Shown here piece after piece: positions 41,001 to 59,000 of a stretch of DNA of 64,000 nt. The position numbers and the translations under genes were made by a program. Source of the DNA: Eledone cirrhosa (taxonomy: Eukaryota); assembly GCA_964016885.1 (NCBI GenBank), contig OZ024750.1, positions 26,846,001 to 26,910,000 on the forward strand, read 5' to 3'. The notes beneath the pieces are model-generated. The model was not told the origin of the DNA and made no database searches. It saw nothing but the letters and a program-made list of their open reading frames with translations. The number at the start of each line of letters is the position of its first letter. Positions within the stretch are counted from its first letter, which is position 1.

Positions 41001-44000
41001 ATATAACGGTCGAGAAACAGAGCCAAGCCTCTTATAACCACGAAAAAAATACCACGGAGGCGGAGGGGGTATTCATATCGAGGCCGTAGAAGAGGTAGTG
41101 AAGAAGGCGAGAAGTATGAGTAATGGAAGCTTTCCAGTTGTCCCCACACTTCAAAGATTGCTCGACCAGAGGGAGTTATTAATACATTTAGAAACACACA
41201 GGTACATGCGGACACACACATATATACATGAATGCATCCGCACCCAACTGTGAGTTAAGGGTGCCAACTTCACCGATGTTGCTCAATGAATGACTGGGAC
41301 AGACCAATTCAGTTTGAACCAGACTGAACCAGTATCAGAGTTAAAAATACATTATGAAGAGAGAAGAAACATTTAGATATAATTAGTAATAAAATGTATC
41401 ATACCTAAACTGTTCCTAAATTCCTCGACTACGTAGTTTCGTGGCATAAACAAAAACAATATATCAAAGATATAGAGTCCTTGCGAGGTCTGCCGACTTA
41501 TCAAGAGGATACCTCATTTTACTAGTCTCAAGAACGCGTCTACACGACGTGAGAAAGAATCCCAAAAGGCGGAGGGGGAGACAGTCACGCGATATAACGG
41601 TCGAGAAACAGAGCCAAGCCTCTTATAACCACGAAAAAAATACCACGGAGGCGGAGGGGGTATTCATATCGAGGCCGTAGAAGAGGTAGTGAAGAAGGCG
41701 AGAAGTATGAGTAATGGAAGCTTTCCAGTTGTCCCCACACTTCAAAGATTGCTCGACCAGAGGGAGTTATTAATACATTTAGAAACACACAGGTACATGC
41801 GGACACACACATATATACATGAATGCATCCGCACCCAACTGTGAGTTAAGGGTGCCAACTTCACCGATGTTGCTCAATGAATGACTGGGACAGACCAATT
41901 CAGTTTGAACCAGACTGAACCAGTATCAGAGTTAAAAATACATTATGAAGAGAGAAGAAACATTTAGATATAATTAGTAATAAAATGTATCATACCTAAA
42001 CTGTTCCTAAATTCCTCGACTACGTAGTTTCGTGGCATAAACAAAAACAATATATCAAAGATATAGAGTCCTTGCGAGGTCTGCCGACTTATCAAGAGGA
42101 TACCTCATTTTACTAGTCTCAAGAACGCGTCTACACGACGTGAGAAAGAATCCCAAAAGGCGGAGGGGGAGACAGTCACGCGATATAACGGTCGAGAAAC
42201 AGAGCCAAGCCTCTTATAACCACGAAAAGAATACCACGGAGGCGGAGGGGGTATTCATATCGAGGCCGTAGAAGAGGTAGTGAAGAAGGCGAGAAGTATG
42301 AGTAATGGAAGCTTTCCAGTTGTCCCCACACTTCAAAGATTGCTCGACCAGAGGGAGTTATTAATACATTTAGAAACACACAGGTACATGCGGACACACA
42401 CATATATACATGAATGCATCCGCACCAAGCTGGAATTTCTTTTATTAATATATATATATATATATATATATATATATATATATATATGGCATGCGAACAG
42501 AACTGCAGACACTAATGTTTCTGGGTATCACCCTTCATCAGTACAGTCCACTGTTCTGCAAAACCGTCAGAGCCAGTGAAAATATATGTTATTTTCAAAA
42601 ATACACAGGGACTCATCGGCCTGATTTGCATATTAGTAGACTGGCTGATCAGTCAGATCTGCATATTAGCTGGATATAAATATATATATATATATATATG
42701 TGTGTATATATATATATATATATATATATATATATATATATATATATATATATATATATATATATATATATATATATATATATATATATTTATATCCAGC
42801 TAATATGCAGTTCTGACTGATATATATATATATATATATATATAAAATTTCAGGTTATCAATAATGTAATGATAATATATCGTTACGTTAGAGATGAACA
42901 GCGTACGTGCAGGTTTGCTCAACGAGTATAAATTTTATTCCGGAGAAAATGTAGAAAGGATGAATATAAAATGAAAGTGCTTTTTTTAAAAAAGGAATTT
43001 ATTAGGTATTGACATATGTTTCTGTAACAGACGGAATACCTATGTATCGCTGCTTGCGTAATCATCTGTTTCTTCCTCTATTACTAATATAAATACTTCA
43101 ATTTTTCTGATTTCATCCAATTTATCCAAAATCTCTGAAGAAGTGACAACTGATTATACATTTGCTATCGAATACTTGCTAACATTATATGATTACGCAA
43201 GCAGCGATACATAGGTATTCCGTCTGTTACAGAAACATATGTCAATACCTAATAAATTCCTTTTTTAAAAAAAGCACTTTCATTTCATATCCATCCTTTC
43301 TATATATATATATATATATATATATATATATATATATATACATATATATATATATATATATATATATATATATATATATATATATATATATATATATATA
43401 TATATATATATATATATATATATATATATATATATATATATATATATATATATATATATATATATATATATATATATATCCAACTAATATGCAGATCTAA
43501 CTGATCAGCCAGTCTACTAATATGCAAATGAGGCCTGTGAGTCAGTGTGAATTTTTGAAAATAGCATATATTTTCACTGGCTCTGACGGTTTTGCAGAAC
43601 AGTGGACTGTACTGATGAAGGGTGATACCCAGAAACATTAGTGTCTGCAGTTCTGTTCGCATGCCAGCACAGGAGCAAGAATGAAGTGTTCATTTTACTG
43701 ACATGGCTATAAAATTCAGGCTTGTTTGCATAATTGTAAGCGAATCGAATGTTATTAATATTCGAAAAGCTCAGATTACATTTATATATATATATATATA
43801 TATATATATATATATATATATATATATATATATATAGATATATATATATATATAGATATATATATATATATATATCAGTTCTGATTTTTGCGTTTCGCTT
43901 CGCTTTTCCTGCCTGCCGAAATGCGATTCTCGCTGATAGTTTATTTGTATATAAATATATATATATATATATATATATATATATATATATATATATATAT

Positions 44001-56000: not shown

Positions 56001-59000
56001 CTGCAGGTTACGTTGGTGACAATTGCCAAGAAGGTATATCATAAAATTGTTACATATTTACTATACACACACACACACATACACATACACACACATGCAC
56101 ACTCACACACACACACACACACACACACACACACACACACACACACACACACACACACACACACACACACACACACACACACACACACACACACACACAC
56201 ATACACACACACACACACACACACACACACACACACACACACACACACACACACACACACACACAAATATATATGTAAATGTTTGTGTGTGGATGTGTGT
56301 GTTTGTGTGCATGTGTTTGTGGAAATATGATGTTTAATATAGAAATCGCTTCTACAGGACTAGAATGGATCCACCCAAAGAAATCATCAGGAAACGGCTT
56401 TCCTGGTGATAACTTTTGAATTAAATAGTCCTAATAGTTCTAAATGTATATATACTGATTATATATATATATATATATATATATACATGTGTATATATAT
56501 CAGGCCGATGAGTCACTGTGTATTTGTGAAGAAAGCACATATTTTCACTGGCTCTGACGGTGTTACAGGAGAACAATGGGCTGTACTTATGAAGGGTGAT
56601 ACCCCGAAACATTAGTGTCTGCAGTTCTCTTCGCATGCCAACACAGGAGCAAGAATGAAGTGTTCATTCTGATGACATGGCTATAAAATTCAGGCTTGTT
56701 TGCATAATTGCAAATAAACCAAATGTTATTATTGGTATTCGAAAAACTCACATTACATTATATGCATATATATATATATATATACATGTATATATATATA
56801 TATTTGCATATCAGCAGACTGGCCAGTCAGTTTCCTGTATACGAGTGATAAATTGCCGGCTTTGCCAAATTTAAATAAAAGAGAAACTTTATATATACAA
56901 ATATATACACAACAAAGCCTGCAGCTCTATTCTCCATCGCTGGCTCCTCTCCCTCTCTCTATGTCTCTCTTTCAATCTACTCTTTTACAACCACTATCTC
57001 TTTCTCTCTATTTTTCACTCTCTCTTGTGTGTGGGGGTGCAGGTGTGTGGGTGCAGGTGTGTGCGTGCAGGTGTGCATATGTGTGTGTGTAAATATGATG
57101 TTTAATAAAGAAATCTTATAGTTATTTCAGATTGCCCAGTAGGAAAGTTTGGTGTTAATTGTACAGGGACATGCCATTGTATCAACAACACAAACTGTGA
57201 CCATCGAAATGGAAGATGTTCAGATGGATGTTCTGCAGGTTATACTGGTAACAATTGCCAAGAAGGTATATCATAAACTTGTTTCATAATTAATATAATT
57301 ACTATATACACACACAGATATATATGTGTATGTGTGTGTATGTGTGTGTTTGTGTGTGTGGGTGTTTGGGGGTGCGGGTGTATGTGTGCATGTGTTTGTG
57401 TGTGTGTAAATATGATGTTTAATATAGAAATCTCATATTTATTTCAGAATGCCGAATAGGAAAGTTTGGTGTTAATTGTAAAGAGACATGCTATTGTATC
57501 AACAACACAAACTGTGACCAGCGAAATGGAACATGTTCAGATGGATGTGCTGCAGGTTATAGGGGTGACAATTGCCAAGAAGGTATATCATAAACTTGTT
57601 ACATAATTACTATAATTACTATATACACACACACATATATATGTGTATGTGTCTGTTTGTGTGTGTTTGTGTGTGTGGGTGTAAATATGATGCTTAATAT
57701 AGAAATCTTATAGATATTTCAGTATGCCGAATAGTAGGAAAGTTTGGTGTTAATTGTACAGGGACATGCCATTGTATCAACAACACAAACTGTGACCCGC
57801 GAAATGGAAGATGTTCAGATGGATGTACTGCAGGTTATACTGGTGACAATTGCCAAGAAGGTATATCATAAAGTTGTTACATAATTACTATAATTACTAT
57901 ATACACACACACACACATATATATTTGTATCTGTGTGTATGTGTGTGTGTGGGTGTGTGGGTGTTTGGGGGTGCGGGTGTGTGTGTGCATGTGTTTGTGT
58001 GTGTGTAAATATGATGTTTAATATAGAAATCTCATATATATTTCAGATTGCCGAATCGGAAAGTTTGGTGTTAATTGTAATGGGACATGCCATTGTATCA
58101 ACAACACAAACTGTGACATCCTTAATGGAAGTTGTTCAGATGAATGTACTGCAGGTTATGTTGGTGACAATTGCCAAGAAGGTATATCATAAACTTGTTA
58201 CATAATTACTATATACACAAACACACATATATATGTGTATGTGTGTGTATGAGTGTGTTTGTGTTTGTGGGTGTGCGGGTGTGTATGTGCATGTGTTTGT
58301 GTGTGTGTAAATATATATAAGATTTCTATATTAAACATCATTTAATATAGAAATCTTATATATATTTCAGAATGCCGAATAGGAAAGTTTGGTGTTAATT
58401 GTACAGGGACATGCCATTGTATCAACGACGAAAACTGTGACCATCGCAATGGAAGTTGTTCAGATGGATGTTCTGCAGGTTATACTGGTGACAATTGCCA
58501 ACAAGGTATATCATAAACTTGTTACATAATTACTAAAATTACATTATACACACACACACATATATATGTGTATGTGTGTGTTTGTGTGTTTGAGTGTGTC
58601 GGTGTGTGGGGGTGCGGGTGTGTATGTGCATGAATTTGTGTGTGTGTAAATATGATGTTTAATATAGAAATCTTATATATATTTTAGAATGCCCAGTAGG
58701 ATGGTTTGGTGTTAATTGTAAAGAGACATGCCATTGTAACGACAACATTAACTGTAACATCTATAATGGAAGATGTTCAGATGGATGTGCTGCAGGTTAT
58801 GTTGGTTTGAATTGCCAAGGTACATCATAAACTTGTTACATAATTACTATAATTACTACATACACACACATATATATTGTAGGTGTGCGTTTGTGTGTGG
58901 GGGTGTGTGGTGGGTTCGGGTGTGTGTGTGCATGAGTTTGTGTGTGTGTGTAAATATGATGTTTAATATAGAAATGTTATATATATTTCAGATTGCCCAG

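Follow-up and report, generated by a model that had tools for sequence, protein, structure and literature searches.

Intronic hammerhead motifs of a retroelement-like family in an EGF-repeat gene of Eledone cirrhosa: likely passengers of exon-unit duplication

The 64,000-nucleotide (nt) stretch of Eledone cirrhosa DNA analysed here, referred to as the window (assembly GCA_964016885.1, contig OZ024750.1, positions 26,846,001 to 26,910,000 of the forward strand), contains the exon array of an EGF-repeat gene. Its introns hold many copies of a non-coding element, termed family A, which bears a type I hammerhead ribozyme motif. An earlier reading of this DNA, the sequence-only reading, proposed that copies lying sense to the gene could cut its pre-mRNA between exons, and that a change of core residue G5 to U (G5U) in two of them may reflect selection against cutting. 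The question is whether these motifs act on the gene or are carried along with it. The explanation preferred here, with a probability of about 0.8, is that a few family A insertions into intronic (TA)n tracts were multiplied passively with exon-plus-intron units, and that the pre-mRNA is cut little or not at all. Family A hammerheads are thus likely passengers of exon-unit duplication, and regulation of the gene by them is not expected. The observations used are the copy number, orientation and relatedness of the copies, their (TA)n flanks, their antisense partners and their abundance in genomic reads; the ribozyme itself probably serves the element's own cycle, by analogy with known systems. 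All positions are those of the window, and copies are named by the position of core residue C3.

The motif and the element that carries it

Six copies are sense to the gene, four with a CUGAUGA core and two with CUUAUGA (Table 1). Their number, type and places agree with the sequence-only reading, the start coordinates of which lie 15 nt upstream of C3, and the predicted cut sites fall on the C of GUC at all four positions that it gave. All 11 core positions scored (C3, U4, G5, A6, N7, G8, A9; G12, A13, A14; A15.1-U16.1; H17) are matched in four of the six, the other two carrying G5U. By the descriptor the motif is of type I, open at helix I, with 6/6 pairs in helix I (5/6 in 50067), 3-4 bp in helix II and 3 bp in helix III. 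The extendable 8-bp stem I described earlier was likewise seen; it includes two G-U pairs and extends beyond an internal loop.

An extra A directly follows CUGAUGA in every complete family A copy. A G10.1-C11.1 pair is possible in the four copies of the second sense lineage described below; in the remaining copies an added A precedes G12. At the base of helix II an A stands opposite an A in 11 of the 15 complete copies, a frequency that rules out decay at this locus as its cause, and A-A looks like the usual form of the family. The earlier caveat that this base is 'A-A or offset', which may lower activity, is thereby refined: the 'offset' base is the normal extra nucleotide of Penelope-type motifs, and A-A looks unlike decay.

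Helix III consists of three pairs and a four-base loop, and all 10 of its bases are self-complementary (two as G-U); 36 of the 256 possible loops would permit this by chance. Across the whole window the descriptor found 16 motifs, of which 10 belong to family A; in 60 dinucleotide shuffles it found 0.1 on average and never more than 2. Helix III is fully self-pairing in 14 of these 16 motifs, including 9 of the 10 of family A, and in none from the shuffles. Rfam gave no hits in the window at its gathering score, and pattern scans of metagenome and viral contigs likewise gave none.

The family A element is non-coding, abundant and about 400 nt long (approximately 375-420 nt by read depth and joints), and a drop in depth near 50730 likely marks its 5′ end. 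Four DNA sequencing runs were mapped onto a stretch comprising antisense copy 50526 and exons 16-17. Approximately 47,000 reads fell on this stretch in each of two restriction site-associated DNA (RAD) samples, and contig depth at family A was tens of times that at the exons; depth is not copy number, and thousands of genomic copies would be a plausible reading of these values. The read majority restores GUC where the mapped antisense copy has decayed, and no majority change affects the core, the base before GAAA or the A-A form among the 40 of 352 variants listed. Both RAD samples contained a head-to-tail joint (120 and 104 reads, from a single start in each), and contig joints occurred in X1 and X2; within the window no head-to-tail tandem family A copies were found. 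Opposite-strand joints made up 10 of the 15 joints listed, nine of these being in both RAD samples. The runs behave as DNA, with contigs spanning intron-exon borders and no exon-exon joints among those listed. A read pile at 50475/50478 was considered as an RNA end and rejected as a restriction-library artefact, as it coincides with a CATG overhang site; the cut site is 15 nt away.

Most family A copies have (TA)n at their ends, and in the sense orientation each of the six is flanked by it both upstream and downstream. A paralogous (TA)n site in eight introns is occupied by family A in three, by a second hammerhead family (family B) in three and by other sequence in two, and is therefore a landing site for mobile elements that is not tied to the family A ribozyme. 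The octamer ATGCAAAT occurs 21 times in the window, mostly upstream of family A and B hammerheads and up to three times per copy, for example at 50612-50662 (minus strand) and 43522 for family A, and at 17741, 25936 and 33458 for family B. It is possibly a promoter element.

By comparison with described systems, family A is likely a non-autonomous, Penelope-derived, retrozyme-like retroelement, and most likely represents a new family of the Penelope/retrozyme hammerhead kind. The hammerheads of Penelope pseudo-LTRs (Cervera and de la Pena 2014, PMC4209133) are likewise of type I, with an additional base inserted between A9 and position 10.1 and a short palindromic helix III; they are reported to act as dimers and to have low activity in vitro. 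They also resemble family A in having several families per genome, thousands of dispersed single copies and opposite-strand pairs separated by some hundreds of bases, reported as 100-700 bp apart; PMC6765202 agrees on the features of these hammerheads. Inverted truncated copies and (TA)n targets are described for Penelope-like elements (PMC8557442). Family A differs from the minimal motifs in PMC4209133 in its longer helix I (8 bp plus extension) and shorter helix II (3-4 bp), and in the A next to G12 of its usual form.

Animal non-LTR retrozymes, for which derivation from Penelope pseudo-LTRs has been reported (bioRxiv 10.64898/2026.07.22.740005), share with family A a single type I hammerhead in a non-coding unit of 300-420 nt, a helix I of 6 bp or more, a helix II of 4 bp, head-to-tail joints at other loci, and solo monomers (PMC7229834; bioRxiv 10.64898/2026.07.22.740005). 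The length of family A thus falls within the 150-450 bp typical of such units. Mussel retrozymes measure 350-390 bp and cleave at about 0.1 per min (PMC7229834). Unlike these elements, family A lacks a tandem array in the window, and its helix III palindrome of 10 nt contains G-U pairs. No paper describing family A was found in the cephalopod hammerhead literature, subscription journals being poorly covered, and no direct match was found in the literature on strand bias of such motifs in introns.

Copy lineages and amplification with the exon units

BLAST with one copy as query returned 19 hits, two of them short tails, so that the earlier count of 'about 16' copies was right: there are 17, seven on the plus and 10 on the minus strand. 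The core region is complete in 15, truncated in one and absent from one fragment, and copies are 84-100% alike across introns. The six sense copies fall into two lineages, the identical pair 43612/47996 and a single clade formed by the other four (100/100). Within each lineage the flanking intron sequence also matches. These shared lineages and flanks bear out the earlier proposal that family A was amplified together with the exon units.

The special status given to the sense copies did not hold, as antisense copies make up 10 of the 17 and the upstream flank of one antisense lineage recurs at seven places in the array. This lineage has been amplified more than either sense lineage. Part of this flank is a deep repeat in the genomic reads; a single ancestral insertion behind the antisense lineage is likely from the shared flank, not proven. 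A few insertions would have landed in (TA)n tracts of the gene's introns, and tandem duplication of exon-plus-intron units would have multiplied them in both orientations.

Predicted folding, antisense partners and possible cutting of the pre-mRNA

The short self-complementary helix III points to dimer-dependent cleavage. In the element's own cycle, monomers would be cut from head-to-tail transcripts by a double hammerhead, in which two helix III segments pair. A single intronic copy may be silenced in three ways. Firstly, its helix III is predicted to be unstable as a hairpin (+1.7 kcal/mol) and stable as a two-copy duplex (-8.8 kcal/mol); no intron contains two sense copies, and the nearest sense partner lies 1.8-4.4 kb away. 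Secondly, in predicted folds of the lone motif the core CUGAUG base-pairs with CAUUAG in helix III, so that the core is unpaired for less than 1% of the time, and the active monomer fold lies above the best predicted fold by 6.6 (43612), 15.3 (50067) and 12.0 (51910) kcal/mol. Thirdly, an antisense copy in the same intron would form a long duplex over the motif. Such a copy, matching the full 70-nt motif at 88.6-100%, accompanies five of the six sense copies, the four intact cores among them; in four predicted folds of this kind 41-46 of 46 motif bases were paired with the partner, which is transcribed first for 43612 and 47996.

Several points weigh against this account. In the introns of 50067 and 51910, transcription reaches the sense motif before its antisense partner. 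Among predicted dimers another fold is more stable than the double hammerhead (-43.4 for the double hammerhead against -51.4 kcal/mol for the window majority motif, and -48.8 against -57.6 for 43612), so that even dimer activity is not confidently predicted, and the folding energies take no account of tertiary contacts, magnesium, proteins or the timing of folding during transcription. Intact motifs are commoner among sense copies (three of six fully intact, one with one mismatch) than among antisense copies (2/10); these counts fit chance, and the sense copies represent two lineages only. The genomic joints were called at 80% likeness, most from 1-4 read starts, with 15 listed and 92 more unlisted. 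In the window, no Penelope element that could be the parent of family A was found, a further difference from the hammerheads of PMC4209133, and no reverse transcriptase or GIY-YIG frame adjoins a copy; the Penelope-like frames that are present (GIY-YIG at 11893-12417; 29012-30103) lie beside a different hammerhead family.

The copies may also act through double-stranded RNA (dsRNA) instead of catalysis, which would be compatible with passive multiplication. Duplexes of 190-300 bp could shorten introns, draw A-to-I editing or, if formed across introns, promote exon skipping or back-splicing. Long duplexes are indeed predicted, copies are alike across introns, and circular RNA in flies is driven by intronic inverted repeats (PMC4617980); here 56586 on the plus strand and the minus-strand copy at 55357-55549 flank exons 22-23. 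Pairs within one intron should, in turn, outcompete pairs across introns, and an effect of this kind is considered improbable.

A similarly low likelihood is given to a ribozyme that cleaves in no context, with its A-A helix II base and self-paired core, in an element amplified by another route. The active fold is not the predicted minimum for monomer or dimer, the usual form has no G10.1-C11.1 pair next to G12, and Rfam returned nothing. Set against this are the read majority, which restores GUC and shows no core change among the variants listed, and the self-complementary helix III of nearly all family A descriptor hits; known Penelope hammerheads are also slow in vitro (PMC4209133).

The same eight inner bases of helix III are both self-complementary and complementary to the catalytic core. 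This suggests, tentatively and from modelling, a built-in off-switch, by which a lone copy would lock itself and only tandem transcripts would form the double hammerhead. Two locked monomers and one double hammerhead are predicted to be nearly equal in energy (-43.6 against -43.4 kcal/mol for the window majority motif), and the natural helix III ranks second of 1296 self-complementary alternatives at hiding the core, with 11-13 of the 1296 nearly as good. That ranking was made post hoc, after the pairing had been noticed, and is without covariation support. Other hammerhead families in the window keep the core unpaired at 0.34-0.65, and a non-catalytic dimer is predicted to be 8 kcal/mol lower; the switch is regarded as doubtful. 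Attenuation of a hammerhead by an alternative fold reportedly has a precedent.

That the intact sense copies cut the pre-mRNA between exons, truncating it or altering exon joining, is considerably less probable again. Four copies keep the full core, and intronic self-cleaving motifs sense to a host gene do have precedents. The mammalian CPEB3 ribozyme, with a half-life of 2-3 min and 9.9 kb from the next exon, tunes mRNA output (PMC10919898), and conserved intronic hammerheads are reported in amniotes (PMC6155905), in RECK, CTCL and DTNB. An axolotl hammerhead still cleaves with a mismatch at the helix II base (PMC7229834). These ribozymes are single-copy and conserved across species, whereas family A is abundant, is present on both strands, decays at the background rate and has antisense partners. 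From the predicted cut sites it is 0.8-1.3 kb to the next exon. With elongation at 3.5 kb/min, the share of transcripts cut before that exon is made would be just 2-4% for k = 0.1/min or 17-25% for k = 0.8/min, an estimate that borrows its rates from other systems (elongation from PMC10919898) and counts cutting up to that point. With a helix III that favours dimers, a predicted self-paired monomer, no second sense copy in the same intron and a full antisense partner for each intact core, efficient cutting is not supported, and cutting of this pre-mRNA by family A is unlikely. A copy that was active could matter for the gene, since RNA levels can fall when a gene is given an efficient hammerhead, the examples in PMC6238598 being exonic.

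On the preferred explanation, core changes such as G5U would then build up at the background rate on both strands. Copies 54805 and 56586 differ by 1.2%, and G5U therefore arose once among the sense copies. Antisense copy 30967 cannot cut this pre-mRNA and also carries G5U, so that selection against cutting is not supported; in all, the change recurs three times in the window, in the sense pair, in 30967 and in the 11168/20085/30480 family. Distinct core changes over the 11 positions numbered one against 2.39 expected from the flank rate in five distinct sense copies (P = 0.31, few events), and three against 3.06 in eight antisense copies, counted without identical duplicates (46934), the truncated copy 33984 and the 3′ fragment. 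The comparison of strands suggested earlier thus gives no sense excess within the window. Nothing points to faster core loss in sense copies; with one and three events the test is weak and has little power, a further point to be set against the preferred explanation. That G5 is essential agrees with the inactivating G5A control of PMC4075628, and extends to G5U by extrapolation from G5A. Selection of the sense G5U because cutting harmed the gene is the least probable of these explanations: it can draw on the G5A control, on Xenopus retrozymes (about 43% of copies intronic, below the expectation from intron length; bioRxiv 10.64898/2026.07.22.740005) and on the G5U copy 56586 being the sole sense copy without an antisense hammerhead in its intron, against which stand a single sense event shared with an antisense copy, core changes at or below the flank rate, and intact cores in the youngest duplicated pair, 43612/47996.

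Host gene, neighbouring elements and significance

In the host array (Table 1), 31 of 32 exons have a normal end, are in frame and encode eight cysteines. The protein clusters closest to it come from eukaryotes and are for the most part molluscan EGF/laminin/PEAR1-type repeats; a protein homologue search with one exon gave no match. Cysteine codons are invariant at their first two positions in 30 of the 32 exons and other positions vary freely, which indicates selection on the gene. Pairwise comparison gave a pN/pS of 1.18 for all codons and of 1.48 with the cysteines set aside (30 of 32 exons, 10885-61528; exons 26 and 32 excluded for length), by simple pairwise counting uncorrected for relatedness or conversion, and diversifying selection may act on a recognition surface of the repeats. 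Both splice sites of exon 21 (54166-54300) are weak (AAG acceptor, T|GC donor), and skipping of this exon is possible; exon 32 (61703-61810) is without a normal end. A tandem duplication of about 4.3 kb at 39008-48851 includes one exon, shows few mismatches outside microsatellites and contains an inner 591-nt tandem repeat (four against two units); it may be a recent duplication or an uncollapsed haplotype.

The introns that hold family A contain at least three more hammerhead-like families, and in several cases helix III is a perfect palindrome; non-family-A hammerheads account for three sense and three antisense descriptor hits. The broken Penelope-like element at 27782-30728 includes, at 27782-27919, 138 nt of its 3′ end repeated in inverted orientation; immediately upstream of the element, 26426-27043 holds a hammerhead-bearing inverted pair of 226 nt. 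An element of about 300 nt with long terminal inverted arms is found at ~42960-43300 and ~47370-47690, between antisense and sense family A copies. A short insertion at ~52410-52590 and ~55175-55357 separates the 3′ tail from antisense copies 52730 and 55490, and presumably resembles a SINE.

Table 1. Family A copies and other features located in the window (family A core positions give C3; predicted cuts fall after the C of GUC)
Feature	Position	Strand	Details
Family A, sense lineage 1	43480-43780	+	CUGAUGA core 43612; predicted cut after 43645; intron 11/12; (TA)n both sides
Family A	47864-48164	+	CUGAUGA core 47996; predicted cut after 48029; intron 12/13; identical to 43480-43780 over 301 nt, in ~4.3 kb tandem duplication
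Family A, sense lineage 2	49972-50240	+	CUGAUGA core 50067; predicted cut after 50100; one stem I mismatch; intron 15/16
Family A, sense lineage 2	51815-52081	+	CUGAUGA core 51910; predicted cut after 51943; G10.1-C11.1 possible; intron 17/18
Family A, sense lineage 2, G5U	54718-54976	+	CUUAUGA core 54805; intron 21/22
Family A, sense lineage 2, G5U	56499-56757	+	CUUAUGA core 56586; intron 23/24
Antisense family A, intact motif	42487-42673	-	100% complementary to 70-nt motif at 43612; same intron, upstream
Antisense family A, intact motif	46880-47066	-	100% complementary to motif at 47996; same intron, upstream
Antisense family A	50356-50730	-	core 50526; C17U and broken first stem I pair; 88.6% complementary to 50067 motif
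Antisense family A, A6U	52590-52864	-	core 52730; 90% complementary to 51910 motif; runs on to ~53103 in shared flank
Antisense family A, same A6U	55357-55549	-	core 55490; 88.6% complementary to 54805 motif
Antisense remnant and flank	56802-57033	-	hammerhead part deleted
Antisense family A, own G5U	30796-30995	-	core 30967; ~11% from sense G5U pair
Antisense family A, U16.1C	19148-19346	-	core 19319
Antisense family A	38143-38414	-	core 38282; 16-nt deletion of stem I 3′ strand
Antisense family A	60855-61091	-	one helix III change
Antisense family A, core-truncated	33818-33984	-	truncated within the core
Family A 3′ fragment without hammerhead	32929-33039	+	BLAST
Hammerhead-like family	17829(+), 26024(+), 32183(+), 33377(-)		descriptor/BLAST
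Hammerhead-like family	11168(+), 20085(+), 30480(+)		2/3 copies read CUUAUGA
Hammerhead-like family	26533(-), 26938(+), 32547(-), 59771(-)		descriptor/BLAST
Broken Penelope-like element	27782-30728		frames 27997-30106; hammerhead-like motif 30480
Broken LINE-type retroelement frames	2098-7257, 7637-10426, 14596-16302, 20859-24594, 35180-38124		within or before EGF array
EGF exon array	10885-61810	+	32 phase-1 exons, 132-138 nt, one 8-cysteine laminin/PEAR1-type EGF-like repeat each; host gene

If the pre-mRNA were cut after all, the locus would be a rare case of ribozyme control over an exon array. If the off-switch were real, a ribozyme-bearing retroelement could sit sense in introns and leave the host unharmed, and the motif would amount to a small natural RNA switch controlled by the number of copies, relevant to ribozyme biochemistry and design. 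The 15 complete copies, with two helix II forms and single-base core variants, offer a natural series on cleavage in vivo by Penelope-type hammerheads. On the preferred explanation, family A adds to the catalogue of animal retroelement hammerheads and would explain how such motifs can fill introns without effect.

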